A stretch of DNA of 64,000 nucleotides from the NCBI GenBank assembly GCA_965237675.1, contig OZ250150.1, positions 3,328,001 to 3,392,000 on the forward strand, written 5' to 3'. A program made the translations under genes and the position numbers. The stretch comes from Candidatus Latescibacterota bacterium (GTDB taxonomy: Bacteria; Latescibacterota; UBA2968; GCA-2709665). Below the pieces are notes generated by a model. The model was not told the origin of the DNA, searched no databases, and saw nothing but the letters and a program-made list of their open reading frames with translations. Positions 5,030 to 48,031 of the stretch are shown here, one piece after another; the first letter of the stretch is position 1, and every line of letters begins with the position of its first letter.

Positions 5030-5410
5030 ATGGCAATTGTAGACATTATCGATGAAATCGAGAAGCTTTCCGTTCTGGAACTGGCCGAACTGGTCAAAGC
5101 GCTCGAGGACAAATTTGGCGTAAGCGCCCAGGCGATGGTCGCCGCGCCGGCGGCCGGCGCCGGTTCGGCACCCGGCGGAGAGGCCGAGGAAGAAGAACAG
5201 ACGGAATTCGACGTGGTGTTGAATGCCATCGGCGACAAAAAGATTCAGGTCATCAAGGTGGTGCGCAGCGTAACAAGCCTGGGTCTGAAAGAAGCCAAGG
5301 AACTCGTCGACGGTGCGCCTCGCAGGGTGAAGGAGGGCGTCTCCAAGGAGGAGGCCGACCAGATCAAAGCTGAGCTGGAGGAGGTTGGAGCCGTGGTTGA
5401 AATCAAATAG
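5030..5410 (+). CDS. rplL: 50S ribosomal protein L7/L12
   Basis: [27 protein letters not shown]. Confidence 0.98.
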
Positions 5411-5480
5411 TCGAATGGCAATTTAACCTGCATTCCTGCCTTCAATCATTGGCCGATTTCACCAGAGGAGCGTGATCATC

Positions 5481-8400: not shown

Positions 8401-9248
8401 AGGTCGACCGCATTATCGACTTGTCCAAGAAACTGATTCGGGCAGCCGAAGACGAACTGGATCGGGAACTGGAAAAAATCGCGCGGGGCGATGAACTTCC
8501 GCCGGGGATTGTACAGCTTATCAAAGTGTATATCGCGCGTAAGCGCAAACTGATGGTCGGTGACAAGATGGCCGGACGCCACGGCAACAAGGGTGTCGTT
8601 TCAATTATCGTTCCGGAAGAAGATTTGCCGTACCTGCCCGACGGCACCCCCATCGATATTATCCTGAATCCGCTGGGTGTCCCGTCCCGGATGAATCTGG
8701 GGCAGATTCTTGAGACCCACCTCGGATGGGCGGCCCGGGCACTCAACCAACATGTCGCCTCGCCGGTCTTCGACGGCGCTTCATTGGAAGACATCAAGAC
8801 GGCGTTGCGCGAGGCCGATCTCCCGGAAGCCGGCAAAACCGTGCTGTACGACGGAAAAACCGGAAGGCCTTTCGATAAGGAGGTAATGGTTGGGTACATA
8901 TATATGCTGAAGCTGTCGCATCTGGTCAGCGACAAGATCCACGCCCGATCCATCGGGCCGTATTCGCTGGTGACGCAACAGCCCCTTGGAGGCAAGGCGC
9001 AATTCGGCGGCCAGCGATTCGGCGAAATGGAGGTCTGGGCGCTGGAGGCCTACGGCGCCGCCTATATGTTGCAGGAGATGCTGACCGTCAAGTCCGATGA
9101 TGTCGCAGGACGTTCAAAGATCTACGAAGCGATCGTAAAGGGCGAGAATCCACCTGAACCGGGGGTTCCTGAATCCTTCAACGTGCTGGTCAAGGAATTG
9201 CAGAGCCTCTGTCTGGACGTGGTCCTGGAGAATGGTCAGAGCGGGTAA
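5481..9248 (+). CDS. rpoB: RNA polymerase beta subunit
   Basis: [47 protein letters not shown]; TTG start after AGGAG inferred. Confidence 0.99.
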
Positions 9249-9275
9249 GATCCGATAGAGGGGTCATCTTTTTAT

Positions 9276-12200
9276 TTGGATTTCGATCGCAAAAAGGGGG
9301 TAAGGCCCGTGGCGGACATCAACACTTCCAAGCGGCCCACAGAATTCAATTCCATCCGTATCCAACTCGCTTCTCCCGAAACGATCCGGGGTTGGTCCCG
9401 CGGTGAGGTGACCAAACCGGAAACCATCAACTACCGCTCGTTCAAGCCCGAGCGTGACGGTCTGTTCTGCGAACGTATCTTCGGTCCGGTTAAAGATTGG
9501 GAATGCAGCTGCGGAAAGTACAAGAGGATTCGCTACCGGGGCGTTGTATGTGACAGGTGCGGCGTGGAAGTGACACAATCCAAGGTGCGTCGTGAGCGGC
9601 TGGGCCACATCGAACTGGCGGTGCCGGTTTCGCATATCTGGTTTTTCAAGTCGCTGCCTTCGCGTATGGGTTATCTGCTGGATATCACGATTCGCAATCT
9701 GGAACGGATCATCTATTACGAGTCTTACGTCGTGTTGGATCCGGGTGACGCGCCGGATTTGAAGTATAAGGATCTTCTATCCGAAGATGAGGCCTTTGAA
9801 CTCGAGTCGGAGGGGTACAACTTTACCACGGATATGGGTGCGGTCGCGCTCAAAAAGCTGCTCAGTGAGATAGACATCGAGGAACTTTCCGCGGAGTTGC
9901 GCACCCAGGCGCGCATGGAAACTTCCGTTCAGCGCAAGCAGGAGGCGTTGAAACGGCTGAAAGTGGTCGAGGCATTTCGCCAGTCCGACAACCAACCGTC
10001 ATGGATGATTCTAGACGTCATTCCAGTTATTCCGCCGGATCTCCGGCCGCTGGTTCCCCTGGAGGGTGGACGTTTTGCCACGTCGGATTTGAACGATCTG
10101 TACCGGCGGGTCATCAACCGGAACAACAGGCTGAAAAAGCTGATCGAAATCAAGGCGCCGGAGGTGATCCTGCGCAACGAGAAACGTATGCTTCAGGAGG
10201 CCGTCGACGCGCTATTCGACAATGGCCGCAGGTCTCGAGCCGTGCGAGGCGATGGCAACCGATCGTTGAAATCCCTCTCGGATCTCCTGAAGGGAAAGCA
10301 GGGCCGCTTCCGTCAGAATCTGCTCGGCAAGCGGGTCGACTATTCCGGCCGATCGGTAATCGTGGTCGACCCCAACCTCAAGTTGCATCAATGCGGGCTT
10401 CCGAAGCACATGGCGCTTGAGTTGTTCAAGCCGTTCATCATCAAAAAACTGGAAGAGCGCGGATTGGTCCAGACCGTGAAAAGCGCAAAGAAGCTCGTCG
10501 AGCGCGAACGGGTTGAAGTATGGGATATTCTGGAGGATATTATCCAGGATCACTACGTCCTGCTCAACCGGGCACCCACGCTCCACCGGCTCGGCATTCA
10601 GGCGTTCCAGCCCGTGCTGGTGGAAGGGAAGGCCATTCGCATCCATCCACTGGTCTGCGCCGCATTCAATGCAGACTTCGACGGCGACCAGATGGCGGTT
10701 CACGTGCCGCTTTCTTTCGAGGCGCAAATTGAAGCGCGCGTCCTGGTCATGTCCGCGAACAATATGCTCAAGCCCGCAGACGGATCCGCGGTGATCGTGC
10801 ACAATCCGCAGGACATCGCCATGGGCTGTTATTATCTGACCAAGATGGTTCAGCAGTCCGGCAACGAACATGTCAAGGCATTCGGCAGCCCCAACGAAGC
10901 ACTGATCGCACACGATTACGGAAAATTACCCCTTCACGAAGCCATTCGGGTGCGTGTCGACGGAAAGCTGCTGACAACCACCGTAGGCCAGGTGATTTTC
11001 AATGACATTCTGCCCGACGGAATGCCCTATATCAATCAGATGGTGGACAAACCGGTGATACAGAAAGTAACCACCGACGTCCACCGGCGATTTGGAAATC
11101 GGGCAACCGTTGAATTTGCCGACGGCTTGAAACGGCTGGGTTATGACTACGCCACCCGATCCGGTGTAACCGTTTCGATGGACGACGTGGTGGTTCCGCC
11201 CAAGAAGCAGGAACTGATCGATAAAGCCAAGGGTGAAGTCGATCGGATCCTGCAGCAGTACGTGCATGGCGTAATCACAGAAGGCGAGCGGTACAACAAG
11301 GTCATCGACGTCTGGCAGCACACCACGAACAATATCGCCGAGATGATGAACGAGGCGCTGGAGCATTCGGAGGCAGGCTTCAATTCGATCTACATCATGA
11401 AAGACTCCGGCGCTCGCGGCAGCGACGACCAGGTGAAGCAGCTGGGCGGTATGCGGGGGTTGATGAACAAACCTCAGAAGAAGCTTACGGGAGCGATCGG
11501 TGAGATTATCGAGACGCCCATCGTCGCATCCTTTAAAGAGGGTCTGTCGGTCCTTGAGTACTTCATTTCCACGCACGGAGCAAGAAAAGGGTTGGCCGAC
11601 ACGGCATTGAAGACCGCCGAGGCGGGTTATCTCACCCGTCGCATGGTGGATGTGGCACAGGACGGAGTGATAGGCGAAGGGGATTGCGGCACCATTATGG
11701 GCATCGAGCTCGAAGCGTTCAAAGAGGGCGAGGAGGTGGTCGAGCCCCTGGCGGATCGTATCGTGGGCCGAACTCTGTTGGAGGATGTGTACGATCCGAT
11801 CGGCGGCGAGATCATCGTGGAAAGCGATATGCTCCTCGACGAGGCATCCGCTGCCAAGATTGCCGATGCCGGTGTGGAACGGGTGAATGTGCGTTCGGTT
11901 TTGACCTGCGAAGCCCGCCGAGGCATCTGCGCCAAGTGTTATGGTAGTAACCTCGCCACCGCCAGGCTCGTTGACATCGGCGAAGCCGTCGGCGTGATTG
12001 CCGCCCAGAGCGTCGGTGAGCCGGGTACCCAACTCACGTTGCGTACGTTCCATATCGGTGGTACGTCCAGCCGGATCGCGGAACAGGCCGAAATCGTCGC
12101 CAAACGGGCCGGCGTTGTGCGGTTCATCAATATGGATTCCGTCACCCGGACCGACGGACAACGCACTGCGGTGGGCAGGAATGGAGAATTCGAGGTGCAT

Positions 12201-13397
12201 GATGATCAGGGTCGTCCTCGCGGCGGGCACTACTACGTGCCCTTTGGCGCCGTGTTGAAAGTGGAGGACGGGCAGCCGGTGGACGAAAACCAGGTTCTGT
12301 ACGAATGGGATCCCTATAACAATAATATCGTCTCGAACCGGCCGGGCACCGTGGAGTTTGTAGACCTTGTCGAAGGTGTGACCTACCGCGAAGAGGCCGA
12401 CGAGACCACCGGTCTGGCTGCCCAGGTGGTGAGCGAACACCGGGATCGCACGTTGTCTCCCCGGATTCGAATCCTCGACGCCGCAGGAAATGAGGTCGGC
12501 CATTACATCATCCCCGTTGGCGCTCGTCTTGTGGTGCATGATGCGGATGTGATCGGCGCCGGAGATTCCCTGGCGAAGATCCCGCGCGAGCGCAGCAAGA
12601 CACGCGATATTACCGGTGGATTGCCCCGTGTCGCCGAGCTCTTCGAGGCACGGCGTCCCAAGGATCCGGCCGTGGTCACCGAAATCGACGGTACTGTCAG
12701 TTTCGGCGGGCTCGTACGGGGTTCCAGGACCGTAATTGTTACGACTGACGACGGCGAGGAACGGAAATATACGATACCCTACGGCAAACATCTCCGGGTT
12801 CAGGAGAATGACCGGGTTCAGGCCGGCGAGCAGATGTCGGAAGGGTCGGTGAATCCGCACGATATTCTGCAGATTCAGGGCATCCAGGCGGTGCAGGAAT
12901 ACCTGGTGAACGAGATCCAGGCCGTGTACCGCATGCAGGGCGTGCGGATCAACGACAAGCATATCGAGTGCATTGTACGCCAGATGCTGCAGAAGGTACA
13001 GGTGACGGATCCGGGCGATACCAATTTCTTGGAAGGAGAAACGGTAGATCGATTCCGTTTCCGGGACGAGAACGATAAGGTGATTGCCGAAGGCGGTGAT
13101 CCGGCGACGTTCCAGTCGGTGTTGTTGGGCATTACACGTGCCTCTTTAATGACCGATAGCTTCATTTCCGCTGCGTCTTTCCAGGAGACGACCCGCGTAT
13201 TGACAGAGGCTTCCGTCCAGGGCAAGATGGACGGCCTGCTGGGATTGAAGGAAAACGTGATTATCGGGCACCTGATTCCGGCCGGAACGGGCGCGGAACG
13301 ATATCGCGGGGTTCGGGCGGTTTCTCTTGAGACGGAGATGGAGGAGGTTCCCGAGGAGGGGCTCGAAAACATCGGTCTTCCGCCGATAAATGCTTGA
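9276..13397 (+). CDS. rpoC: RNA polymerase beta' subunit
   Basis: [12 protein letters not shown] catalytic motif and Zn ribbon; start uncertain (9276 or 9309). Confidence 0.99.
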
Positions 13398-13422
13398 CAA
13401 GCCAACCGTAAATTTGTATAAT
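13394..13422 (+). promoter_or_regulatory. Perfect-consensus sigma70 promoter for the str operon, overlapping the rpoC stop
   Basis: TTGACA(13394-13399)-17 nt-TATAAT(13417-13422). Confidence 0.85.
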
Positions 13423-13518
13423 GAAAGTCTATGGTTAAATTTAACCGTCAACGGCAAAATCGGCTGTCCGGTTGGATCGTCTGTGTTTGTGTGGATGCAA
13501 ACCATACAGGAGGTTGTC

Positions 13519-13890
13519 TTGCCCACCATCAATCAGCTGGTGCGCAAAGGACGTAAATTAAAAGCGAAGCGGTCGTCTGCCCCCGCATTGCGGGGATGCC
13601 CGCAAAAGCGGGGTGTCTGCACGCGTGTCTATACCACGACCCCCAAGAAGCCGAACTCCGCCCTGAGAAAGGTGGCCCGCGTTCGCCTCACGAACGGGAT
13701 GGAGGTCACAGCCTATATCCCTGGCGAGGGACACAATCTTCAGGAACACTCGGTAGTACTCATTCGGGGTGGTCGGGTAAGGGATCTGCCTTCGGTTCGG
13801 TATCACATTATAAGGGGTGTCCTGGACACGACCGGTGTCGCCGACCGAAAACAGGGCCGGTCCAAATACGGTGCCAAAACGCCTCAATAG
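13519..13890 (+). CDS. rpsL: 30S ribosomal protein S12
   Basis: (M)PTINQLVRK...[11 protein letters not shown]; TTG start after CAGGAGG. Confidence 0.98.
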
Positions 13891-13977
13891 GACTTCAGTT
13901 TTTATGAATGCGTTTGTTTCGGGGGAACACGCTCGAGAAGGCTGTAGACGGTGTGTCCCCCTTGTTTTGAGGGTGTT

Positions 13978-14445
13978 ATGAGAAAAAGGCGTGCCGAGAA
14001 ACGGGCGTTCTCACCCGATCCCAAATACGGCAGTGTTCTGGTGACGCAGTTTGTCAACAGTCTCTTTCGGAAGGGCAAGAAGAGCATCGGCGAAACGATC
14101 CTGTACCATGCTTTGGACCTTATCGCCGAACGGTCGGACGGAACAGGGCTGGACGTATTTGAAAAGGCGGTCGAAAACGCCAAGCCGATGATTCAGGTGA
14201 AATCCCGACGCGTGGGTGGGACGACTTACCAGGTGCCTGTCGAAGTACGGTCAGACGAGCGCCTTTCGCTTTCAATCGGCTGGTTGATTACGTTCGCGCG
14301 CGGGCGGGCCGAGAAAACCATGTCCCAGAGGCTTGCAGGTGAATTGACGGACGCGGCCAACGGCCGGGGTGGAGCTTTGCAGCGAAGAGAAGAGACCCAC
14401 CGCATGGCCGAGGCCAACCGGGCGTTCGCACACTATCGTTGGTAA
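13978..14445 (+). CDS. rpsG: 30S ribosomal protein S7
   Basis: [28 protein letters not shown]. Confidence 0.98.
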
Positions 14446-14450
14446 CGCAA

Positions 14451-16520
14451 ATGTCACGTAAAGAACAGCTGGAACGGATCCGAAACATCGGCATTATGGC
14501 CCATATCGATGCGGGTAAAACCACAACGAGCGAGCGTATTCTGTACTATACGGGTCGGCTGGATCGGATGGGCGAGGTGCACGATGGCGCGGCCACAATG
14601 GACTGGATGGACCAGGAACGTGAGCGGGGCATTACCATTACGTCGGCTGCTACCAACTGTTTCTGGGACGGACACCGGATCAATATCATCGACACGCCCG
14701 GACATGTGGATTTTACGGCCGAGGTTGAGCGGTCACTCAGGGTCCTGGACGGAGTCATCGGGATCTTCTGCGCCGTAGGCGGTGTGGAGCCTCAGTCCGA
14801 AACGGTCTGGCGCCAGGCCGATAAGTACAGGGTCCCGCGAATTGCTTTTGTGAACAAAATGGACCGTACGGGCGCCGATTTTTTCCGCGTCCTTGAAATG
14901 ATGAGAGAACGCCTGGCTTCGAATTTTGTGCCGGTGCAGATTCCCGTCGGCGCAGGCGAGTTATTTACCGGATTGATCGATCTGGTGAAGATGAAGATGG
15001 TGTCCTATCAAGAAGACACGCTGGGCACGGTATTTACAGAAAGCGAAATTCCGCACGACTTGCTGGACCGTGCACAGGTCTACCGCGAGCAGATGCTTGA
15101 GGCGGTCTCTGATTTCGACGATACCCTGATGGAAAAATTCCTCGAAGGCGAACCTATCGCCGAAGAAGAAATAAGACAGGCCCTTCGGCTTGCAACGATC
15201 AATGTACGCGCGGTGCCGGTCTTCTGCGGATCGGCCTTCAAAAACAAGGGCGTCCAGCGCCTTCTTGACGGCGTTCTAGACTATCTGCCATCCCCGCTGG
15301 ACGTTCCGGCGGTTAACGGCACCCATCCGGAGTCTGGGGCGCACGTCGCCCGCGCGCCTTCCCACGACGAACCGTTTTCCGCGCTCGCATTCAAAGTGAA
15401 AACCGATCCTTATGTGGGGCGCCTGACCTATTTCAGAGTCTATTCGGGTTGCCTCAAGACCGGCTCGTACGTGATGAATTCCAACAAAGGGAAACGAGAG
15501 CGTATCGGCCGGGTACTGCAAATGCACGCCAACAAGCGAGAGGAAATCGGCGAGGTCGTAACCGGAGATATCGCAGCCGTCGTTGGGCTGAAAGATACGG
15601 CAACGGGGGAGACGCTCTGCGACCTTGACCATCCGGTTATTCTGGAATCGATGGACTTCGCGAAACCCGTCGTGTCCGTGGCTATCGAGCCCAGAACCAA
15701 GGCAGACCAGGACCATCTGGGGACCGCGCTTGGAAAGTTATCCGAAGAGGATCCCACCTTCCACGTGTCCACCGATGAAGATACCGGCCAGACGATTATT
15801 TCAGGTATGGGTGAATTGCACCTGGAAATCATTGTCGACCGCTTGATGCGAGAATTTCGCGTGGCGGCCAATGTGGGCAAGCCACAGGTGACATTTAAGG
15901 AGGCGATTCGCAAGACGGTAAAGGCAGAGGGTCGGTTCGTACGACAGACGGGTGGCCGGGGGCAGTGGGGGCATGTCTGGCTGGAGATGGGGCCGGGGGA
16001 GTCGGGGAGCGGGCTTGTGTTCGAAAATAAGGTTGTGGGTGGGGCCGTACCGTCCGAATATATCTCTTCGGTCCGACAGGGCGTTCAAGAGGCCATGCAG
16101 TCGGGCGTATTGGCCGGATATCCTGTGGAAGATGTAAATGTCATACTTTACGACGGATCCTACCACGAAGTGGATTCTTCGGAAATAGCGTTCAAAGTGG
16201 CCGGGTCCATGGCCTTTAAAGACGGCGCCCGAAGAGCGGATCCTTACCTGATGGAACCCCTGATGGACGTTGAAGTGGTCGTGCCCGAAGAATATATGGG
16301 CGACGTGATGGGCGACCTGAATGCCCGGCGTGGACACATTGTGGGCATTGTGAACCGGCCGGATGCCCAGGTGATTACGGCAATGGTCCCCCTGACCGAG
16401 ATGTTCGGTTATGCCACACGTCTGCGGTCCTTGACTCAGGGGCGTGCTATCAATTCGATGGAATTCTCAAGGTTCCAGGAAATACCGAAAGGGCTCGCAC
16501 GGGAACTCACCGACAATTAG
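14451..16520 (+). CDS. fusA: Elongation factor G
   Basis: [23 protein letters not shown]. Confidence 0.98.
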
Positions 16521-37040: not shown

Positions 37041-40000
37041 ATGTTTAGAGTGTGTATCGGCATTATTCTCCTGTTTGTCTTCCCGCCGTGCGTGGAAGCA
37101 CGCCCGCGGATGGATTGGACGGTGTTCCGGCGCGAAGACGGTCTTGCCCACAACGTGGTGACGGCAGTCGTAGAGGCACAAGACGGCGCGCTCTGGTTTG
37201 CCACACGTGAGGGTATATCCCGCTATGACGGTCGGGCATGGCGCACCTATGGCGAAGAAGAGGGGTTGCCCGGCAGCAGTTTCCGCGGGCTCTTCGAAGC
37301 TGAGAACGGCACCCTGTGGGCCACCGGAGGTGTCGGGTTTCGCTGGCAGGCTGAAAACCACATCGCCCGTCTGGTGGGCGACCGGTGGGAGCCGGTCATA
37401 CTGCCCGGAAACCTTGCGGGTGTCGGCGTGGGGCCGATTGTCGGCGTCGCAGGAGGCGGCCTCTGTTTTGCAACGGCGGGTTTGGGTATACTCCACTATG
37501 CCGGTGACGAGTGGAAGACCATTGACGAAGAGGATGGGCTGGCGTCCAATAATGTGCAATGTCTTTTGCGGTTGAAGGACGGGGCCGTGTGGGCGGCGTA
37601 CGCAGGGGGACGGCCCGGAAGCAGGTCTTTCCTACGCCGTCCCAGACGCGGGCGGGGCGGGGGCGTTAGCCGATTCGATCCTTCGAAGAATGAATGGGTG
37701 GAGGTTGCCGCGCCCGGCGAACTGGCGGGTGGCGCGGTGACCGCGATGGCGCAGGCTGCGGACGGCGCCATCTGGCTGGGAACGGAGAACAGAGGGGTAC
37801 TGCGTTACGACGGGTTAAATTGGCAGGAGTTTACTGCGGCAGACGGGTTGCCCGCGAACCCGGTGCTGGCCGTCGCTGCGGCGCCTGATGGGTCAGTATG
37901 GGTGGGAACCGTCGGTGGCGTCGTTCGATTCATGGCGCCGGAAACGGAATTGTCGGCCGGGGATCACTGGCAGATAGTTCAGATTTTTACGGAAGAGAAC
38001 GGCCTGCCGAGCAATCTGGTCACATCCATCTGTGTCAGCAGGGCCGGCGCCGTGTGGGTGGGAACCGCATGGGGTGTCGCGCGGTACGGTGCAACAGGTT
38101 GGGACCAACACAGCCGGTGGGCCGGTGCGGCTGACCCCGGCGGCGTGGCCCTTGAACGTACGGCGGATGGCCGTTTGTGGGCAGCCACAGGAGAGCGAAT
38201 CTACGAATTTGACGGCGCCAACTGGCATGAGGCTTACCGGATCCGGACCCATGGCCGCCGTCGGCCCGGGCCTATTGTGGCGTTAAATAAAGGAAAGGGC
38301 GGTACGCTCTGGGCTGCCATCGATCGACGTGTGTTTCGTTTTGACGGTGCCTATTGGAAGGAATTCGGGTTGCCGATGTCTGGACCCGGATCCCGTATTC
38401 TATCGATTTTCCCCGCACGTGCGGGCGGGGTGTGGGCGGGCACGCGAGCCGGGCTATTTCGATTCGACGGCGAGGAATGGTCCGCGCATGCGCCTGCGGT
38501 GACAGGAGGGGTGCACGCCGTATACGAGTCCGGCGATGGCGCCCTCTGGCTTGGCGCCGACAGCGGCGTCGTTTTGGATAAAGACGGCGAACGCCGGGTT
38601 TTCACCTCGGCCGACGGGTTGTCTGGGGAGCCTGTCGTCGCGCTGGCCGAGGCGCACGGCGCGATCTGGGCCGCAACGCGCTTCAAGGGGATGTTTCGAT
38701 ACAATCGGGGCGTGTGGGAAGCCGTGCCAAGGGGCGATGAGACCGTTTTCGCGGGAGCGCACCGTTTTTTTGTGGATGACGATGGCATACTCTGGTTGGC
38801 CTCCCTTGCGATCGGCGCGGTTCATACCGATGGCGAGGTCTGGACGCGCTACACGACGCGCAGCGGCCTTCCGGGCGCCCGGGTGTGGGATATCGCGCAG
38901 GACAGGGATGGACGGTTCTGGTTTGCCACAGATAAGGGACTGGGATGTTATTCGCGGGACACCGATGCGCCTGAAACCGTGCTGTCGATGCCTTCCAACG
39001 AGGTGGCGCCCTACCAGAGTGTCCTGGTAAAATTCTCCGGTCAGGACGCGTGGAAACAGACACCGACACACGAGTTGAAATACGCGTGGAGGCTCAGTGG
39101 AGAGGTTTGGATGCCGTTTGTTCGGGTCAGAACGCCTGGAATCTGGACGCCGTTTACAGCTGAAGATCATACGCTTTTAAGCGGGCTTGAACCCGGCCGT
39201 CATACCTTTGAAGTTCGTGCGATGGATCGGGAATTCAATATCGATCCGACACCAGCCCGGCATTTTTTCATGGTTCTGGCCCCCGTGTGGCAGCGGCCGT
39301 GGTTCGTGGCGCTCAGCGTATTCTCGATCGTGGCTCTTGGCGTGTCGTCCGGAGTTGCGCTGCAACGGCACCGGCGGTGGCGCGAGGCCCAAGCCCGCCA
39401 GATCCAAGAATTGGAATCCGAGTTACAGCAGGCGCACAGGATGCAGATGGGTCTGCTGCCTACGGCCACGATACGAGACGAATTTTTTGAAATTGCAGGA
39501 GTCTGCGCGCCCGCGAACCACGTCGGTGGCGACTATTTCAACTATTTCTGGCTGGACGAGGCACGGAGGGTTCTTGGCTTTGGCGCGGCAGATGTCTCGG
39601 GAAAGGCGATGGAGGCGGCCGTGCGGGCGATGCAGTTGAGCGGGATCTTCAGGTACGAGTTTCGAGGTGAAAAGCCGCTGACCGAGGTTGCGAAGCGGCT
39701 GGATGAGGATTTGAAGGAACAGATGGATGAGGCCAGTTTCATTACCTGTTGTCTGGGCAAGCTGAATCCGGTAGCGGGGCGCGTCGACCTGGTCAACGCC
39801 GGCCATCCCTTCCCATATCATTATTGCGCAGCGGCGGGGGAGTTGCGGGCCCTTCATCTGCCGTCCATTCCGCTGGGTTTGGTTTTGCCCCCGGGAAGCC
39901 CCGGCGGGCATGCCGAGGCCGCCATCGATGTGGCACCGGACGACCTGCTGGTGTTCTACAGCGATGGCGTGACCGACATGCGGAATGGGGCCGGGGAGTT

Positions 40001-40181
40001 TTATGAGACAGACCGGCTGGAAAAAACGATCAAGGCGCATGTTCGGGCAAGCGCCGCGGACCTGGTCTCTGTGATTCTCGAGGACGTTTACCGTTTCAAG
40101 GGAGATGCGCCTCAGCCGGACGATATGACGCTTCTGGTGATTCGAATGCTGGATGGGGGGCGTGCGGACGCAAGCGGATGA
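37041..40181 (+). CDS. Membrane sensor phosphatase: extracytoplasmic beta-propeller (Reg_prop) repeats, Y_Y_Y-like domain, TM helix and SpoIIE/PP2C domain
   Basis: Signal peptide; repeated DGL..N.V...DG.LW.GT; HTFEVRAMD; PVWQRPWF plus TM; VGGDY, ADVSGK, NAGHP, YSDGV, DDMTL. Confidence 0.9.
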   Translation: MFRVCIGIILLFVFPPCVEARPRMDWTVFRREDGLAHNVVTAVVEAQDGALWFATREGISRYDGRAWRTYGEEEGLPGSSFRGLFEAENGTLWATGGVGFRWQAENHIARLVGDRWEPVILPGNLAGVGVGPIVGVAGGGLCFATAGLGILHYAGDEWKTIDEEDGLASNNVQCLLRLKDGAVWAAYAGGRPGSRSFLRRPRRGRGGGVSRFDPSKNEWVEVAAPGELAGGAVTAMAQAADGAIWLGTENRGVLRYDGLNWQEFTAADGLPANPVLAVAAAPDGSVWVGTVGGVVRFMAPETELSAGDHWQIVQIFTEENGLPSNLVTSICVSRAGAVWVGTAWGVARYGATGWDQHSRWAGAADPGGVALERTADGRLWAATGERIYEFDGANWHEAYRIRTHGRRRPGPIVALNKGKGGTLWAAIDRRVFRFDGAYWKEFGLPMSGPGSRILSIFPARAGGVWAGTRAGLFRFDGEEWSAHAPAVTGGVHAVYESGDGALWLGADSGVVLDKDGERRVFTSADGLSGEPVVALAEAHGAIWAATRFKGMFRYNRGVWEAVPRGDETVFAGAHRFFVDDDGILWLASLAIGAVHTDGEVWTRYTTRSGLPGARVWDIAQDRDGRFWFATDKGLGCYSRDTDAPETVLSMPSNEVAPYQSVLVKFSGQDAWKQTPTHELKYAWRLSGEVWMPFVRVRTPGIWTPFTAEDHTLLSGLEPGRHTFEVRAMDREFNIDPTPARHFFMVLAPVWQRPWFVALSVFSIVALGVSSGVALQRHRRWREAQARQIQELESELQQAHRMQMGLLPTATIRDEFFEIAGVCAPANHVGGDYFNYFWLDEARRVLGFGAADVSGKAMEAAVRAMQLSGIFRYEFRGEKPLTEVAKRLDEDLKEQMDEASFITCCLGKLNPVAGRVDLVNAGHPFPYHYCAAAGELRALHLPSIPLGLVLPPGSPGGHAEAAIDVAPDDLLVFYSDGVTDMRNGAGEFYETDRLEKTIKAHVRASAADLVSVILEDVYRFKGDAPQPDDMTLLVIRMLDGGRADASG

Positions 40182-40789
40182 AGTGTGAGACCTCACACGG
40201 ATAAAGAGGGAAACTACCTGACCTTGGCACCTCCCGAAAAATTGCAGATCAATTCTGCGTCAAGACCCGCATTTTTTCGCATTGTCCCTTCGACCCTTAA
40301 CATCTCTCCCGTCAAGGCTCTTCTCCAGAATTCAAAGCTCATTAACGACCCCAATGGCTAATCCCCCTTCTCCAGATCCCAAACCATCGCCAAGATCGCC
40401 GTCTTACATTGAATAATTGAAAGCAAGAAACACAAGACATAGCGAGATTTACAGTTACACGTTCTCGGATCGATTCTACTCATCTAATTCACAGCTAGAC
40501 TCGATCGATGTCGACATGCCGCTTATCGTGTCATCCTTCATGGACAGAGCTATCGCTCACCACGACCCCAACAAACGAGACATAAAATCACCATTGGAGC
40601 TGAGATCCACAAATTTCAATCATAAATCCCTACAGAGACTGCCCAATATTCCTCCCCCACTGGCGCTATTGAGCCGATCGTATGGGTTGGCCCCTTTCAC
40701 CAATCATTGACAAGCTGTGAATCTCATTGCGTCTCTGAAGACGCTCAGAGCTTTGGTGGCCAAGGTCTACTAGAAGAGGACGTTTACTG

Positions 40790-41167
40790 ATGGATGCAGA
40801 CCAAACCTGCCGCCCAATGGAACCAATGAAGGATGCCATAACTAGCATGGCAATTGAATCTTGGCGGTTTACAAAGGTATTCGACCGTTTGCTCAACAAG
40901 CTAGATGCTGGCGAACAGAAACGATACAGGAGCCAAGTTCGATGGTTCACCAAAAGGTTCGAAGAGGCTCTGAAGCTGGCTGATTTGCGAATCGTCGACG
41001 TTGAGGGGCATCCCTTTGATCCAGGCATGGCCGCTACACCTCTGAACATCGATGAATTCGACGCTGAAGATTTCTTGATAGTCGATCAGATGATTGAGCC
41101 TATCATTATGACGAACGATCGTTTGGTTAAGACAGGAACTGTCACGTTGAGGAGGGTGAAACAATGA
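40790..41167 (+). CDS. Short divergent GrpE-like protein
   Basis: C-terminal half L.IVDVEGHPFDP...V.QMIEP.....RLVK.GTV follows the GrpE head pattern (G..FDP...V...Y....RL.R...V); stop overlaps the Hsp70 start (ATGA). Confidence 0.6.
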   Translation: MDADQTCRPMEPMKDAITSMAIESWRFTKVFDRLLNKLDAGEQKRYRSQVRWFTKRFEEALKLADLRIVDVEGHPFDPGMAATPLNIDEFDAEDFLIVDQMIEPIIMTNDRLVKTGTVTLRRVKQ

Positions 41168-43662
41168 GAAATTTCGTAGGTATCGACTTGGGGACAACAA
41201 ACAGCGCGATCTGCTCCTTTAACGGTTCCGAAACTTGCATTTGGAAGAGCCCCGAACAGAACGATGTAACACCCTCTGTCATCCATATAGATCGAAGGGG
41301 CAATAAGTATGTCGGTAAAAGGGCTTGCGATTCAGCCCGATACAGTCCCGATAATTCTGCAATGTTATTCAAGCGACTTATGGGAACAAGCACGCCAATT
41401 CGACTAGCGGCAGTCAATCTCACTAAAACGCCGGAAGAATGCTCTGCGGAGGTATTGAAGGTGCTGTTTGGCTATCTCTCTGAGGAGATCAGAAACGACC
41501 CGGATACAGGTACCGTGATCACTGTACCCGCGGCATTTAACCAAATGCAGAAAGACGCGACCATGCAAGCGGCCAGCATGGCAGGTATAGGAAAGGTTGC
41601 ACTCATGCAGGAGCCGGTTGCTGCGGTGATGAGAGTCATGCGATCAAGTAGCACTGATGGTATGTTTCTGATCTACGACCTTGGCGGAGGCACGCTAGAT
41701 ATAGCTATCGCCGAAAGCATCAGTGGAAGGGTTAACCTTCTTGCACACGGCGGGATTGCCATGTGTGGTGGACGGGATTTCGACCGCGTTCTATTTGACA
41801 ATGTTGTTCGTAGTTGGCTGCTTGAGAATTTCGATTTGCCCGAAGATTTGCCGGCGAACCCGACGTTTAAATCGCTCATCCGTCTAGCCATCTGGGCGAC
41901 CGAACGGGCGAAGATCGAACTCTCCGCACGCGAAGAGGCAGTTATAAGCCTTTCCGAAATAGAGACACGGGTCAGGGATCTCAAAGATAACGAAATCTAC
42001 CTCGACATTTCCTTGCAGCGCGGCACCTATGACAATCTGATAGCCGAGCGCGTAGGTGAATCGATAGATTCCGCTCGTGAGACAATGGCAAAGGTAGGAA
42101 TCCCCCCACACGATTTAGAGCGCATCGTGTTTGTCGGTGGCCCAACCATTTACAAGCCATTGCGGGACAAAGTCGCCTTCGAGTTAGGAATCCCCGGAAG
42201 CACAGATGTTAATCCGATGACAGCCGTGGCCGAAGGGGCCAGTATATTTTCTGAATCCATCGACTGGGGCTCCCACAATCGCTCAAGGAAGAAATCCCGA
42301 GGGCAGATTTCCCCGGTGGGTGGGCTGGCTCTGACTTTCAACTATATCGCCCGTACACCTGACTCAAGAGCCAAGATTGCCGTTGAGATGGCAGGCCAAA
42401 ACGCCTCTGGTTTTGAAATCCAAATCGACAGTATCGATACCGGCTGGACCTCGGGTCTTATTCCACTCAAGCATGGTGCAATAATTGAAGTAACCCTGAC
42501 AAAGACCGGCGATAACACATTCAAGGTTTTCGTGTTTGATTCTGTGGGCGGCCCTATAGCCCTCGAGCAGGACAAGATCATAATCACGAAGACTGCTGTT
42601 ACCGTTGACGCCATTCCGGCCTCGCATTCAGTTGGCATTGAGGTTTTGGAGAAGCTAGGTGGGCATCCGGTACTCGAATACCTGGTTCGGTCAGGTGAAA
42701 CGCTACCCCAAAAGGGCAAGAGGGTACTAAGAGCTGCCGAATCGCTTAAGGCAGGAGCATCTCACTCACTCAATTTTAAGCTTTGGGAAGGAGAAATCGA
42801 AGAGCCCATCAGCGACAATCGTCCCATCGGCGTTTTGAAGATTTCCGGCTCCGATTTCGATGATGGTGTGATTCCCATAGGCGCTGACCTTGAATGTGAT
42901 TATGAGATCTTGGATTCGGGGAACATCGTCATAGAAGTTTCCGTTCCATGCATCGGCGGTACATTCTATTCGGGTAAGAACTTCTATTCTCGGCAGGAAG
43001 GCCAGCTTGACTACACTTCAGATTCAGTTCGGATCGTCGAAGAAGGAGAACGAACACTCAGGCGCATTGATGAAATCAACCAAGTCGTTGACAACGCGAA
43101 ACTTGACCAAGCAAAGCAGAAACTTGAACCTGCAATTTCGCTCGATCCCAACGAAGCAGAAACCGAAAAAGCCCAAGAGGCCATGGAAAAAGTCTTCGAA
43201 GCGAAACAACTCCTTGCTCAGATTAGGAAGGCTCATCTCAAGGAGATCCGTCAAATTGATCTGGACGGGGTGGTCTCCTTTTTTGATGAGTATGTCCGCC
43301 AGCACTCACGCCCATCAGAGGCGACCTCATTCGATAACTTGGCGAAAACAGCGCAACGCTCCATTGACAGAAACGACAATGATTTTGAATATCACTTGGA
43401 TGAACTTAAAGGAAAAAACTTCGAAATCCTGTGGCGTCAGGATTGGTTCGTTGTCGAACAATTTAAAAGGATGATTGAGCTGCCTCACCTATTTGCAGAT
43501 AAGCTTCTCTCTCAGGAACTTACCAACGTTGGCATGCAACTAATGCGTTCCAATGATATTGAGAAACTCCGCGATGTTGCCGCCCAGCTAATGATGATCC
43601 GGATTGACAAAGGTCCCGACAACGAGATGTTCGGTGTTACAACCAATATTATCAGGGGATGA
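41164..43662 (+). CDS. Atypical Hsp70/DnaK-family protein (832 aa)
   Basis: GIDLGTTNS, TPSV, VITVPAAFN, EPVAA, YDLGGGTLD, GGRDFD, AKIELS, FVGG; not canonical DnaK. Confidence 0.92.
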   Translation: MRNFVGIDLGTTNSAICSFNGSETCIWKSPEQNDVTPSVIHIDRRGNKYVGKRACDSARYSPDNSAMLFKRLMGTSTPIRLAAVNLTKTPEECSAEVLKVLFGYLSEEIRNDPDTGTVITVPAAFNQMQKDATMQAASMAGIGKVALMQEPVAAVMRVMRSSSTDGMFLIYDLGGGTLDIAIAESISGRVNLLAHGGIAMCGGRDFDRVLFDNVVRSWLLENFDLPEDLPANPTFKSLIRLAIWATERAKIELSAREEAVISLSEIETRVRDLKDNEIYLDISLQRGTYDNLIAERVGESIDSARETMAKVGIPPHDLERIVFVGGPTIYKPLRDKVAFELGIPGSTDVNPMTAVAEGASIFSESIDWGSHNRSRKKSRGQISPVGGLALTFNYIARTPDSRAKIAVEMAGQNASGFEIQIDSIDTGWTSGLIPLKHGAIIEVTLTKTGDNTFKVFVFDSVGGPIALEQDKIIITKTAVTVDAIPASHSVGIEVLEKLGGHPVLEYLVRSGETLPQKGKRVLRAAESLKAGASHSLNFKLWEGEIEEPISDNRPIGVLKISGSDFDDGVIPIGADLECDYEILDSGNIVIEVSVPCIGGTFYSGKNFYSRQEGQLDYTSDSVRIVEEGERTLRRIDEINQVVDNAKLDQAKQKLEPAISLDPNEAETEKAQEAMEKVFEAKQLLAQIRKAHLKEIRQIDLDGVVSFFDEYVRQHSRPSEATSFDNLAKTAQRSIDRNDNDFEYHLDELKGKNFEILWRQDWFVVEQFKRMIELPHLFADKLLSQELTNVGMQLMRSNDIEKLRDVAAQLMMIRIDKGPDNEMFGVTTNIIRG

Positions 43663-43674
43663 TTTGTGACAAAT

Positions 43675-45062
43675 TGAAGTGGACCCCAAAAACTGGACCG
43701 GCATCAATGACCGAATGGACTTAACCTGATTTGGTGGACGCTCATCTTCTGGTTATCTTGATGAGACATAAGGAGGTTCATCGTGCCCGATACACATCCT
43801 CCGTATCCGCTTGAGGATCGTCAGCAGATGGTAGAATTGGTACGAGCGGGGCGCTCACCAGAATGAACTGGCGATGGTTAACGAGTCCACCGGCCAGTCG
43901 ATCCGTGACGAAGTGGCTCAGGTGGCTCGAGATTGCGGCCGCCGGGACGACGATCTAACGACATAGGCGTGTGAAGAACTTGCGCGGTTGCACAGCGGGA
44001 ACAAGCAACCACGTATTAAACGTGAGATCCTCTCAAAAGCCGCCGCCTGATTCGCACGGGAGACCGACTCCATTCCTCAAAAGCCTTCGCGTTTGAAATG
44101 GCGCACCGGGCCGTGTACGTTGTGGCCACGGAATGGCGCGTGATGGGGAACTCCACCAGCGAGTATATTGCGGGGCTGAAGCGTCAGATCTCAAGACGTG
44201 CGGTAGCTGATTTGGTCCTCAAGGATCACATTGCGGTACTTCACACGCGATCTTTTGGGACCTATGGCGCACGCCGAAACACACCCAACTGGCATTTGAG
44301 GGCACTAAAACGGGCCCCAAGCGGTTTGTCCGGCTACTGCGGAAAATCGTCACTATGGGGTTAGCCAACACAAAGGCGTGCTCGCTACCTCGAAGGGCCA
44401 GCAGGAAAGCACTGTCGCCGATTTGGCTAATCGGGAATTTAGGGTCGTAGCACCCGATTGTTTCTAGGAGCCTGCGCTCCAGAACGGATTTGAGCACTGA
44501 ACTACACTATATATAGTATTGTAAGTTTTCTGCGGCGCAGACTCCTAGGAGGCCGATATCACGTACTTCCCCATCTGGGCGGGCTTCCTTTGCTTTTCCG
44601 TGGCTCTGGATGCCGTCTAAAGGCGCATCGTAAGATGGGCGATCGACTCGCATTTACACACCAAGGTGGCGCTGTATGCCATGGATACAGCCTTGCGGCA
44701 TCGTCGTCCCATGGACGTGATCGATCATTCCATTGAGGGATCGCGGTATACCTGCCTCGCCTTCGGTCTGCGCTACAAGAATGCTGGTGTCCGTCCCTAC
44801 AGTGGATCGGTCGGAGACTGCTTGGCGAACGCGATGTGCGAGAGTTTCTTCGCTACGGTAGAATGCGAACTGCTCGATCGCCACTGGTTTCGCACGTTCC
44901 TGGCCGCGCAACGGGCCGTCTTCGAGTACATTGAGGTGTGCAATAGTCAGCATCGTATGTATTCAGCTTTGGAAATAGGACTCACTCACATCCCATGAGG
45001 AAATACATTAGTCACTTGGTTGATACCTAGGCCGATAACCGCCCACGAATCCGGTAAACTCA
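43675..45062 (+). mobile_element. Degenerate IS3-family element; orfA and orfB pseudogenised
   Basis: TG...CA ends flanked by AAAT at 43671-43674 and 45063-45066. orfA remnant from 43783 reads PPYP..RQQMVELVRAGRSPE...REILSKAAA*FARE. orfB remnants ADITY.P.WAGFL and GSVGDC..NAMCESFFAT.ECELL contain stops and frameshifts. Confidence 0.88.
44468..44544. mobile_element. 77-bp MITE-like element nested in the IS3 remnant
   Basis: CTAG duplicated at 44464-44467 and 44545-44548; terminal IRs GAGCCTGCGCTCCAGAA / TTCTGCGGCGCAGACTC match at 14/17. Confidence 0.75.
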
Positions 45063-45064
45063 AA

Positions 45065-46741
45065 ATGGACCTTCTAAAAAATCCCTTCCATATTCTAACC
45101 GCTACTCCCCGAGACAATCGACGAAGGATTATGGAACTGGCAGATGAACGTGATCTGCTACTAGATTCGAGTGCATGTATACAAGCGCGTTCTGATTTGA
45201 CAAATCCCCGAAAGAGACTCTTTGCCGAAATCGCGTGGTTGCCAGGATTGAGCCCAAAACGCTCTACCGAAGTGTTGCAGTTGTTGGAATCAACGGGAGA
45301 GGATCTCGACATGAACAATTGTGCGTTCTTTTCGGATACTCTCGGATTGGGAAAAACGACCCCCACCGCTCGTACCAACTTGCTTGCCGCCTGGCTATCC
45401 CGTTTGCCTGATTACTCGCCAGACGAAGTTGCGGAAAGGATTCTCGAAATTGCCTGGGCCTTTGAGGATATCAACTCAGAAGCGCTTCGCACAACCATCA
45501 ACGACGAACGCATTGTGTCCAGTTTCCCCGAAATAACAGATCTGTCGGCGGTAGAAGTGGAAATACAGAATCTGCGTCGATATTATCTTCAGGTCATCGA
45601 ATCGGCCTTGGACAATCTACCGACTAACGAGCTTGTCGAAGCGGTGGCCGACGTGGTTGAATCGGCAACAGACAATGGAGACGATCACGGGCCAATGTTG
45701 ATTGATGACCTAGTCGGATGGTATGAGCTAAGTGTTCAGGAGCCACTTAACAAGGAAGAAGGAAATATCAAGGCATTGGTCGAGAAGCTCCGAATGTCGG
45801 CTGACGGAGAACTCCCAGACTCTACGTTGGCCCCCATTATCAACGAACTCATTCGGGTCGTCAAAAACTGGGACAAGGTTGCGCAGCCGATCCAAGTCAA
45901 CACAAAGAGCCGGGGATTGGACCATAATGCAAGTCATCAGGTGGCCGATCTTGTGCGAGGATTGGCAATCCACCTTTCCAACGAACACGGCAAGCTCGGT
46001 TTCTCACGACAGCTTATGGGGATGCTGCAAGAAGTGTTCGCAGAGGTTGTTGAAGTTGCCGAGCGCACCGCTGAAGACATAAGTGCACTGGATGATATCG
46101 CCGAGAAAATTGACGACGAAAAAAAACGGGCAGAAGAATGGCGCAAAGAAATCACCTATGAGGCCGACATAGGCACACTCTTTAAACAAAAGCTCCGAAT
46201 TTCACCTGAAGGTATCGAATGGAAAGGATGTCAATGGGATCTTGATTCCATTACACGGGTTCGTTGGGGAGGAACACGACATTCAGTAAACGGCATTCCC
46301 ACCGGAACAATCTACAGCGTTATTTTCGGTGACGACTCTGACTACGCTTCCATTAGGTTGAAAAAGGAGGCCATCTACAGCGATTTCATAGACTGTTTGT
46401 GGCGGGCTGTTTGTGTGAGGTTGTTAACCGAGTACCTCAATTACCTGCGTGACGGCGGGAAAATTACATTCGGCTCCGCCGTAGTGACGGACCACGGGTT
46501 GGAGTTGGAGCGCAAGCGGCTATTTTCAAGCAATGAGCTAGTTTTTTGCCGATGGTGTGAACTCGTAATGTGGAACCACGCTGGCGTCTTCTACACAGGA
46601 AAAAAAGGTGACAAGAAGCTGGCTTCTGCTTTCTCATATCAGGAAGATGACAATATACACATACTTGAAGCCATGATTCGTATGTTGCAAAAACAGGGTG
46701 GCAACAGATTGAGTAGCATCTTGGGGAATAACAGCGAATGA
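45065..46741 (+). CDS. Hypothetical 558-aa protein: J-domain-like N-terminus (no HPD), helical middle, two PH-like C-terminal segments
   Basis: Long clean ORF. N-terminus NPFHIL...A..DLTNPRKRL resembles J-domain helices I and IV. C-terminus LRISPEGIEW...W.L..I..V and VVTDHGLEL...RW.EL. Confidence 0.75.
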   Translation: MDLLKNPFHILTATPRDNRRRIMELADERDLLLDSSACIQARSDLTNPRKRLFAEIAWLPGLSPKRSTEVLQLLESTGEDLDMNNCAFFSDTLGLGKTTPTARTNLLAAWLSRLPDYSPDEVAERILEIAWAFEDINSEALRTTINDERIVSSFPEITDLSAVEVEIQNLRRYYLQVIESALDNLPTNELVEAVADVVESATDNGDDHGPMLIDDLVGWYELSVQEPLNKEEGNIKALVEKLRMSADGELPDSTLAPIINELIRVVKNWDKVAQPIQVNTKSRGLDHNASHQVADLVRGLAIHLSNEHGKLGFSRQLMGMLQEVFAEVVEVAERTAEDISALDDIAEKIDDEKKRAEEWRKEITYEADIGTLFKQKLRISPEGIEWKGCQWDLDSITRVRWGGTRHSVNGIPTGTIYSVIFGDDSDYASIRLKKEAIYSDFIDCLWRAVCVRLLTEYLNYLRDGGKITFGSAVVTDHGLELERKRLFSSNELVFCRWCELVMWNHAGVFYTGKKGDKKLASAFSYQEDDNIHILEAMIRMLQKQGGNRLSSILGNNSE

Positions 46742-47056
46742 GAATCAGAAATACCAAACTTGGATTTTCCAGTCTAATCAGTTTGACATCGAATTCGAGA
46801 GATTTCGTTCAGCCTGAAACTTATAAAGCGTCCTACATTTCTTGGGCAGCAGTCGCACTAAATACAGTGTTCGCGTTACTGTATTTGACAATATCTCCAC
46901 CACCAGTTCGGTTGTAGAATGTTGATTAGGGTGAAGTCTGTGTATGGGGTGATTGCCTTCTTGCATTTCAGAAGCAACCGGAGATGGTTCTTGAAGTCGC
47001 CGCACAAATGCAAGGGAAAAATTAAAGTGCCGTGGCTGCGATTTCTTGACTTCCAA

Positions 47057-47911
47057 CTAAGCAGCATCGCCGATTCTTTTCTCCGCGGATTCCACGGTCT
47101 GGGTGATTAGCGTGGCGATAGTCATGGGTCCAACGCCACCGGGCACCGGGGTGTATGCCGCGCATCTGTGGACGACTGCCGAGAGTTCCACATCTCCGAC
47201 AGGGCCCGGATGGAAACCGGCATCGATGACGACGGCGTTATCTGCGATCCAGTCGGCTTTGATGAATTCCGGTTGCCCCACGGCGCCAACGACAATATCG
47301 GCAGCGAGGACAATTCGGGGAAGATTTCGGGTTCTGGAATGGCAGATGGTCACGGTGGCATTGGCATTCAGCAGCATCATAGCCAGTGGTTTACCCAGAA
47401 TAGGGCTTCGACCGACGACAACGGCGTTTCTGCCTTCCACCGGGATATCGAAATGCAGAAGAAGCTTCATGATGCCTGCGGGTGTTGCCGCGCCGTAGGC
47501 TGACGCTCCCATAGCCATCAGACCGAAACCGTGTGCCGTGACACCGTCCACGTCCTTTTCGGTCGAGATCCGGTCGAAGCACGCGCGTTCGTGGACGTAG
47601 GCGGGAACCGGGTGCTGCAGAAGAATTCCGTGCACGTCGGGATCGGCGTTGAGCTTGTCGATCTCGGCCAGGAGTTCGCGTGTGGTCGTTTCTTGCGGCA
47701 GCAGGACTTTCAATGAGTCCATGCCCACCCGTTTGCAAGCGTTGCCCTTCATTCGCACGTAAGTGGCTGATGCGGGGTCGTCTCCAACCAGGATGGTGCC
47801 CAGAACGGGAACCTGACCGCCCGCCCTTCCCTTAATACGTGCCACGCGGCCTTTCAGTTCAGTTTCAATCTGTCTGGCAAGCGATTTGCCATCCAGGACT
47901 GTTGCTGCCAT
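47057..47911 (-). CDS. folD: Methylenetetrahydrofolate dehydrogenase/cyclohydrolase FolD
   Basis: YVRMK (YxxxK), [26 protein letters not shown]; GGGAGG RBS. Confidence 0.96.
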
Positions 47912-48031
47912 CGCGCCTCCCTTTGCGACCATACATTCTGGCACGGATTCGGTGGCCTCACCGCGTCGAAGTCTGCTCATCGGGTAACGGGCGGCGGCCC
48001 CCTCGCTCCGAAATCCACCCTCAGCGAATCC

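Follow-up and report, generated by a model that had tools for sequence, protein, structure and literature searches.

The window analysed here, a 64,000-nt stretch of contig OZ250150.1 (GenBank assembly GCA_965237675.1, positions 3,328,001 to 3,392,000 of the forward strand), comes from a Candidatus Latescibacterota bacterium and carries an inserted island of ~6.9 kb. The three co-oriented open reading frames (ORFs) reported there by an earlier first-pass annotation are real. They encode a small GrpE-like protein (gene 1), an Hsp70 (gene 2) and a 558-aa protein (gene 3 of that annotation), which is referred to below as G4, being the fourth gene of the intact set in other genomes. The best explanation, which is considered probable, is that the locus is a copy of a widespread mobile cassette that was acquired horizontally and is now partly destroyed. 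The features that bear on it are as follows.

40182 to 47056, no strand: inserted island, ~6.9 kb, of low guanine-plus-cytosine (GC) content, extending from a SpoIIE-type regulator gene to folD
40790 to 41167, plus strand: gene 1, a 125-aa protein, very probably a stalk-less relative of GrpE (Pfam, hhalign, position upstream of Hsp70)
41164 to 43662, plus strand: gene 2, an 832-aa Hsp70 (PF00012, DnaK structures, AlphaFold2 (AF2) model, hhalign)
43666 to 43668, plus strand: relic GTG start codon left from a lost AAA+ gene, separated by 3 nt from the stop of Hsp70 (junction compared with six relatives)
43669 to 45064, plus strand: decayed IS3-family insertion sequence (IS) of 1396 bp in place of the AAA+ gene (rve_3, HTH_21, tblastx)
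45065 to 46741, plus strand: G4, 558 aa from the ATG, with a helical scaffold (residues 1–363) and beta-rich domains at 365–462 and 467–544
46738 to 47021, plus strand: stump of a further cassette gene, C6, with an ATGA overlap with G4, a tag-like KLGFSSLISL and an in-frame TAG at 46915–46917

Relatives of the locus were collected by a scan of one genome per species, which gave 274 stretches encoding a relative of the Hsp70; the locus counts refer to the 80 best of these. Further conserved members of the set were obtained by clustering all 979 ORFs from the loci. Loci with an Hsp70 at least 73% identical are termed the close clade. In 79 of the 80 loci, the gene immediately upstream of Hsp70 is a homologue of gene 1. 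Downstream of Hsp70, a gene for an AAA+ protein of 472–502 aa, starting 3 nt past the Hsp70 stop, was detected by tblastn in 72 of the 80, and it stands between Hsp70 and G4 in all 25 close-clade loci that have downstream sequence. G4 homologues were found in 67 loci; of the 13 loci in which none was found, most are on short contigs that break off shortly past the Hsp70 or AAA+ gene. The genes are thus syntenic in other genomes, which is the point that the neighbourhood survey proposed in the first-pass annotation was meant to check. The eight loci without the AAA+ gene comprise two contig ends (L012, L052), one locus that is otherwise different (L059) and five in which G4 follows Hsp70 directly. 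The latter, a Desulfovibrio metagenome-assembled genome (MAG; L034) and four Poribacteria loci (L037, L040, L068 and L070), have a slightly longer Hsp70, and L068 has two G4-type genes. These natural variants are a useful comparison for the AAA-less remnant in the window.

Two gene orders were recognised in the relatives, namely GrpE-like, Hsp70, AAA+, G4, (C6), C4 and GrpE-like, Hsp70, AAA+, C4, G4, C5, C7, where C5 and C7 occur in a more distant clade. An intact set includes the mini-GrpE, an 831-aa Hsp70, a Cdc48/VAT-like AAA+ protein, a 550-aa G4 and one or two envelope or membrane proteins. The cassette Hsp70 is 61–84% identical across Acidobacteria, Desulfobacterota, Gamma- and Betaproteobacteria, Nitrospirota, Bacteroidota, Chloroflexota, Verrucomicrobiota and Poribacteria. 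The conserved unit is a cassette of five to six genes, centred on a private Hsp70, that is mobile across many bacterial phyla. The proposal that the window holds a self-contained three-gene module has to be withdrawn, since the Cdc48-like AAA+ gene and the membrane proteins that bear a common tag, both part of the unit, have been lost here.

The AAA+ protein of the relatives consists of one AAA module and a private N-domain of ~240 residues. Its best relatives in the PDB are VAT, Cdc48, p97, NVL and AFG2 (E 5.7e-49), and it matches the IetA model of PADLOC (best E 1.3e-28) and a generic TRIP13 model. In a Desulfococcus MAG, the AAA+ gene (L024:9509-10934) is split by a frame change into ORFs of 195 and 287 aa, either a damaged copy or an assembly error.

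The tagged proteins are encoded by C4 and C6. C4 is present in 47 of the 78 loci with a called Hsp70, and its product combines a transmembrane segment with a PG_binding_1 domain (E 1.6e-15) and with Cys-rich repeats that are variable. C6 (~250 aa) was found in eight loci. The two are unrelated except for a common N-terminal tag, K/R-G-F-S/A-G-L-S-D/S-L, which occurs in 40 of the 49 C4 ORFs, six of the eight C6 ORFs and four of the 628 other ORFs, all four at cassette positions; none of the Hsp70, AAA+, G4 and GrpE-like ORFs has it. The tag is better conserved than the remainder of C4 and C6, and the periplasmic repeats are highly variable between loci. In the window, C4 is absent and C6 is represented by the truncated gene at 46738–47021, which had not been noticed in the first-pass annotation. 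The C6 protein of locus L002 matches it in tblastn with 39.6% identity over 96 aa (E 1e-12), and DNA homology to L005, L002 and L001 reaches position 47021, 35 bp short of folD.

DNA homology between the window and the closest relatives extends over 40826–43668 and 45065–47021. At the left junction, the relatives have TGA-ttt-ATG, with the ATG starting the AAA+ gene, whereas the window has TGA-ttt-GTG followed by IS sequence. No AAA+ homologue was found anywhere in the 64-kb window. As the AAA+ gene intervenes in the relatives, and as homology breaks at 43668 and resumes at 45065, the IS stands in place of a gene and does not split a spacer. Seven relatives have a GGAGG Shine-Dalgarno sequence ahead of the G4 ATG, which the window has lost. 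An upstream TTG at 45020 would give a G4 of 573 aa; the ATG is the start that matches the relatives. The IS3-family element has taken the place of the AAA+ gene and also eliminated the G4 ribosome-binding site. The earlier suggestion that gene 3 lay 10 nt after gene 2 before the insertion does not agree with the AAA+ gene intervening in 72 of 80 loci and in 25 of 25 in the close clade.

The same observations bear on the possibility that the locus is a complete machine of a GrpE-like protein, an Hsp70 and a J-like adaptor, with the IS merely placed in the spacer between genes 2 and 3. The intactness of all three ORFs and the AAA-less arrangement in five of the 80 loci would agree with it. However, the AAA+ gene is present in every close-clade locus with downstream sequence, its relic start codon is kept in the window with homology resuming only at the G4 ATG, and G4 is followed by the truncated remains of another cassette gene. 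A complete three-gene machine is therefore regarded as highly improbable, and the partly destroyed cassette is the reading followed below.

That the segment between genes 2 and 3 is derived from a transposase, as annotated earlier, was confirmed by Pfam matches to rve_3 (E 6.4e-7), rve_2 (E 1.5e-4) and HTH_21 (E 0.014) and by a colinear tblastx match to an annotated IS3 family transposase (58.6% over 140 aa). Distant blastn matches were likewise to IS3 family transposase genes. The element is decayed: tblastx shows three or more in-frame stops and two or more changes of frame, each forward frame contains 14–19 stops, and the transposase motif HSDQGSQY appears as HSIEGSRY. Its right inverted repeat could not be recognised. 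A search of the same genome found no further copy of the IS, and no close intact relative was found on plasmids, the best matches showing 65–70% identity over at most a quarter of the length.

Having lost the AAA+ gene, both tagged proteins and the ribosome-binding site of G4, the window's copy cannot run the full cycle proposed for the cassette. The window Hsp70 departs from the family at 14 of the 319 columns whose conservation is 95% or higher, as compared with 0–8 in ten close-clade rows; the sign of relaxed selection on the Hsp70 is suggestive only, because four distant rows reach 14–20. The GrpE-like protein departs at one of 26 such columns (G111R) and G4 at one of 33, which is ordinary. 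The island in this genome should be annotated as a decayed relic rather than as a working three-gene system.

The coordinates confirm the 4-nt ATGA overlap between genes 1 and 2. The similarity of gene 1 to GrpE, proposed earlier on the basis of a head-like pattern, was supported at a moderate level by profile comparison. An alignment of 36 gene 1 orthologues with 18 canonical GrpE proteins by hhalign gave a probability of 76% and an E value of 2.2e-5 over 69 columns, with a G-x-P-F-D-P motif in register. The Pfam GrpE match, the score of which is considered below, spans profile positions 57–161 of 165, i.e. the C-terminal two thirds. The L002 orthologue matched the Pfam model at E 0.12, the NCBIfam GrpE models matched gene 1 at E 0.08–0.15, and the best named Atlas cluster was an auto-named GrpE fragment (score 0.92). 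With 125 residues and a match beginning at position 57 of 165, gene 1 does not encode the long N-terminal dimerising helix, or stalk, of GrpE. The protein is very probably a stalk-less GrpE relative, and presumably acts as the nucleotide-exchange factor of the cassette Hsp70, with exchange activity suggested by this similarity.

Gene 2 matches PF00012 with E 4.6e-49 and 167.6 bits (cut-off 20.6). An Hsp70 nucleotide-binding domain (NBD) is certain and occupies residues 1–364. DnaK structures match residues 2–362 in the PDB sequence search, the modelled domain superimposes on BiP with Z 32.4 and a root-mean-square deviation (rmsd) of 3.1 over 353 aligned residues, and the motifs GIDLGTTNS, KR..G, QEP.AA and DLGGGT.D align with their DnaK counterparts. 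Pfam and PDB sequence searches alone detect only the NBD. The hhalign comparison with 15 DnaK proteins (probability 100%, E 2.9e-43) aligned residues 3–564 with DnaK 1–454, leaving ~110 residues (~365–480) gapped between the NBD and the beta part of the substrate-binding domain (SBD-beta). In the same alignment, residues ~483–564 correspond to DnaK 384–454, and the SBD-beta keeps the DnaK pattern. In the AF2 model (mean predicted local distance difference test, pLDDT, 75.8), residues 365–389 are disordered, 390–602 form beta structure and 617–831 form helices. The NBD is thus followed by a disordered stretch and a beta-rich insert (~365–480), the SBD-beta (~483–602) and a helical tail (617–831). 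Neither the short interdomain linker of the DVLLLD type nor a helical lid of canonical length is present. The insert showed no similarity to the protein's own SBD-beta in an internal repeat test, and the whole-model structure search was filled by NBD and actin-fold rows. The alignment, the model and the insert bear out the first description of gene 2 as an Hsp70 with intact ATPase motifs and an extra domain.

G4 gave an AF2 model (pLDDT 92.2) that is helical over residues 1–363 and followed by two beta-rich domains, each closed by a helix. The first of these (residues 365–458) resembles the PH-GRAM domain of MTMR6 and the PH domain of Tfb1, with Z 8.3, where the tool sets Z 8 as borderline, and an rmsd of 2.7–2.9 over 78–84 aligned residues. 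The second (467–544) has the same order of strands and then helix, had no structural match among those listed, and shows no detectable sequence similarity to the first. Of the two PH-like segments reported earlier, the first thus resembles PH domains at a borderline score, and the second shares the order of strands and helix. In a Foldseek search of the PDB with the whole model, nothing was found at E ≤0.001, and weak rows were to the DH-PH proteins Ephexin4 and FARP1 (TM 0.1). No Pfam family matched G4 at E values up to 1.

The likeness of the start of G4 to a J domain is not statistically supported. PF00226 gave no match to G4, and a genome-wide PF00226 search found dnaJ only. The HPD motif is absent, as had been noted; the loop where it would be expected reads LLLDSSA. 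Alignment with 15 J domains by hhalign had a probability of 0.4%, or 1.2% under relaxed settings, so that the J-domain idea fails in profile comparison. The relaxed alignment is colinear (residues 8–55 with positions 3–63), with the HPD segment in a 13-residue gap, and the order of the helices in the AF2 model (7–10, 19–30, 35–46 and 48–56) is compatible with a J fold; the whole-model searches were filled by other parts of the protein.

A complex prediction for G4 residues 1–115 with Hsp70 residues 1–620 gave a score of 0.43, classed as weak support, as compared with 0.00 for the best of three controls; the mark used is reached by 58 of 80 solved complexes and two of 110 mismatched pairs, and scores of 0.60 or less over the mark include only seven of the 80 solved complexes and both passing mismatches. 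At least 81% of contacts recur between the runs, with a partner pLDDT of at least 70. It is plausible from the predicted complex that G4 serves as a client-recognition adaptor. Among sequence clusters made at 50% identity, G4 has 1,758 representatives at E ≤0.001, 1,267 at ≤1e-10 and 629 at ≤1e-30. The source names listed among the best 120 hits are all 'hypothetical' or 'uncharacterised', and the nearest Atlas clusters are likewise unnamed. In a class of distant-clade loci (L042-L076; e.g. L042:12679-14703), G4 has an N-terminal extension of ~130 residues that starts with a zinc-ribbon-like CxxC...CxxC motif and is absent from the window's G4.

The remaining features of the island and its surroundings are listed below.

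37041 to 40181: Reg_prop/SpoIIE-type regulator gene, left neighbour of the island
40182 to 40789, no strand: leader of the island, 608 bp, without a recognised gene; DNA homology to relatives begins only at 40826
44464 to 44551, no strand: short repeat element inside the IS remnant (IS-segment positions ~802–889), with a palindrome at 44501–44522
47057 to 47980, minus strand: folD, right neighbour of the island, with purL beyond

The lower GC content of the segment, noted in the first-pass annotation, is evident in the GC profile, with values of 0.46–0.53 across ~40.0–47.0 kb and 0.58–0.64 in the flanks. The flanks, described there as housekeeping genes, are housekeeping or regulatory genes. 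The leader is AT-richer and has no recognisable gene and no homology to the upstream regions of relatives; its one 97-aa ORF (40417–40710) has no Pfam match. Partial copies of the ~90-bp repeat are found at five or more other places in the chromosome (87–100% identity, often as two adjacent pieces), and it looks like a small element of the repetitive extragenic palindromic (REP) or miniature inverted-repeat transposable element (MITE) type.

In all 11 congener loci that were fetched, the SpoIIE-type gene and folD converge ~100 bp apart, i.e. the site is empty, and a search of 21 further genomes from the family, 14 of which are congeners, turned up no G4 gene. Hence the island was acquired horizontally. 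The same genome has its own dnaK, grpE and dnaJ elsewhere. This agrees with the earlier view of a horizontally acquired, dedicated and non-canonical Hsp70 set. No tRNA gene was found in the 36–52 kb region, the ends of the island have no convincing flanking direct or inverted repeats, no integrase marks the island, and megablast of the island against E. coli genomes gave no match.

The mobility of the cassette is evident from its carriers. G4 was found on 13 plasmid records, four of them with the full length, and in no match among 50,697 phage records. On the IncP plasmid pKAM471_1 of Aeromonas caviae (L164, locus 1-14454), the cassette lies immediately downstream of Tn7-like tnsD and tnsE. 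The RefSeq names of the genes on this plasmid are hypothetical protein, Hsp70 family protein, ATP-binding protein, peptidoglycan-binding domain-containing protein and hypothetical protein. This copy is accompanied by five additional small genes, one of which encodes an RDD family protein.

The surroundings of the relatives were compared with defence models using, on either side of the cassette, the two nearest ORFs of 200 aa or more, of which 119 of 158 eligible were scanned with PADLOC. The 119 flank ORFs gave 297 family matches and 119 ORFs called by the same procedure around canonical dnaK, grpE and dnaJ gave 17, a crude comparison that counts family matches and not genes, uses redundant models and draws on related loci. 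The matches include HamA (five ORFs), type I restriction endonucleases (four), mad2/mad3/mad8 (four), a ZorD/DpdE-like helicase (four), AriA (three), HEC-01A (two) and PDC-S02 (two). These counts place the relatives among defence genes, in line with the earlier remark that the accessory location is compatible with a role in anti-phage defence. A homologue of HamA (Hachiman) directly follows the cassette in L002, L005, L013, L014 and L016, and several loci have a type I restriction R subunit immediately upstream of the cassette (L013, L014, L017 and L021).

A role in conflict or defence is favoured as the overall purpose of the cassette, with about an even chance of being correct. The tagged envelope proteins would be sensors, clients or anchors, and the tag could be the handle by which the cytoplasmic components engage them. 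G4 would be the adaptor that brings the tagged proteins to Hsp70, the mini-GrpE would reset Hsp70, and the AAA+ ring would unfold or extract the target. The output would be directed to conflict with phages or other mobile elements. A more specific version is an immune system that runs on a private Hsp70 cycle. Here the envelope repeats would sense an attack on the cell wall, upon which the cytoplasmic tag would be exposed or released, seized by Hsp70 via G4 and passed to the Cdc48-like ring, whose pull on the membrane protein would carry out the response; the window's remnant would then be a natural partial knock-out under residual selection. This version is tentative and, in its full form, rather doubtful.

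The recognisable domains can also be accounted for without defence. The cassette may be a mobile module for proteostasis or envelope stress, in which the private Hsp70, its exchange factor and the unfoldase maintain or remodel the module's own envelope proteins under stress. It would resemble the horizontally transferred heat-resistance islands, which carry ClpK/ClpG disaggregases. All recognisable domains are of the chaperone, unfoldase or cell-wall-binding kind, and the core has no toxin or nuclease. A specialised Hsp70 that acts at the membrane with membrane-anchored co-chaperones is known in HscC with DjlB/DjlC (PMC8215388). However, matches to defence models are far richer in the cassette flanks (297 as compared with 17), no small heat-shock protein or protease travels with the cassette, and the periplasmic repeats of the tagged protein vary strongly between loci, as a recognition surface would. 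A stress module is an unlikely explanation.

As the tag is confined to membrane proteins encoded by the cassette and is better conserved than the rest of them, it might be a targeting signal and not a trigger. The cassette would then be an assembly or insertion chaperone for tagged envelope proteins that are themselves the functional product, e.g. in surface or entry exclusion, which would suit its carriage on plasmids and a Tn7-like element. However, two ATPases and an exchange factor are a heavy apparatus for inserting one or two proteins, and such a role is considered improbable.

Several findings weigh against the preferred reading of a partly destroyed defence cassette with its own Hsp70 cycle. 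The match of gene 1 to Pfam GrpE (PF01025; E 0.0045) scores 17.1 bits, below the gathering cut-off of 25.8, and a profile of 36 GrpE-like proteins found no GrpE among PDB sequences, only RNase HII at E 0.15. The case for G4 as an adaptor stands on the weak complex score, and that for a defence context on the crude flank comparison described above. No PADLOC-DB v2.0.0 family matched genes 1, 2 and G4 of the window or their L002 orthologues, one cyclase match at E 0.029 aside. The core genes have no recognisable toxin, nuclease or other effector domain. In the Desulfovibrio MAG and the four Poribacteria loci, G4 directly follows Hsp70 without an AAA+ gene. The three ORFs of the window (4545 nt) have no stop or frameshift and lie beside an IS with at least three stops and at least two frame changes, so that this copy cannot safely be called dead. 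The intact ORFs beside the decayed IS, together with the five natural AAA-less loci, suggest that purifying selection may still act on the remnant, subject to the caveat that the IS may have arrived defective or been mobilised in trans and that the events cannot be dated. A residual function of the remnant, possibly an AAA-independent activity, is conceivable but unlikely.

No characterised system was matched, as had been anticipated. The full-text literature search found no description of the gene set, with the limit that supplementary tables, which may list the neighbourhood, were not covered. The cassette thus appears to be without a description in the literature or in the PADLOC models. 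Bacterial relatives of Hsp70 beyond DnaK, HscA and HscC are referred to as unexplored 'dark matter' in a 2026 review (PMC13580251). With 1,267 G4 representatives at E ≤1e-10, and with its spread over many phyla, its carriage on plasmids and a Tn7-like element and its position among defence genes, the cassette makes up a large part of this unexplored set. If it is defensive, it would tie an Hsp70 cycle and a Cdc48-type unfoldase to bacterial immunity, and chaperone biology would gain a minimal self-contained set of Hsp70, exchange factor and adaptor with a defined peptide tag.

Among known defence systems, IetAS shares the AAA+ component, in that the cassette's AAA+ protein matches IetA models (best E 1.3e-28). 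However, the match covers only the generic AAA module (residues 247–475), no IetS-type protease accompanies it, and the AAA+ gene is absent from the window. Hsp70-like components occur in other conflict systems, namely CnuD of CoCoNuT type III (PMC11090510), HSP70 with GrpE in GAP1-N2 GTPase systems (PMC7159879) and DnaK-like fusions to EACC1-protease modules (PMC12642450). The cassette is similar to these in having an Hsp70 homologue in a defence-island context and, as in the GTPase systems, a GrpE-like partner. Their hallmarks, i.e. McrBC homologues, GAP1-N2 GTPases with FNIII/J proteins, and a caspase-like protease with EACC1, are not found in the cassette. Furthermore, the Walker A-like motifs of CnuD are degenerate (PMC11090510), whereas the NBD of the cassette Hsp70 is intact.

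HscC with DjlB/DjlC of E. coli is similar in being a second, specialised Hsp70 of sporadic occurrence with dedicated membrane-linked partners. HscC has 550–580 aa, is thought to need no nucleotide-exchange factor and has partners with true J domains (PMC8215388). None of these three properties holds for the cassette.

The DnaK-DnaJ-GrpE system with ClpB shares with the cassette an Hsp70 NBD with catalytic motifs and an SBD-beta, a GrpE-type partner, here translationally coupled to the Hsp70, and, in intact copies, an AAA+ unfoldase. In contrast to DnaK, the cassette Hsp70 has an insert of ~110 residues at the interdomain linker and a helical tail of 215 residues instead of the lid. Its GrpE is a stalk-less protein of 125 aa, no J domain with HPD is present, and its AAA+ protein is of the single-ring Cdc48/VAT type, unlike ClpB. 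To the canonical scheme the cassette adds tagged membrane proteins, and it is mobile, patchy in distribution and coexists with the genome's own dnaK, grpE and dnaJ.

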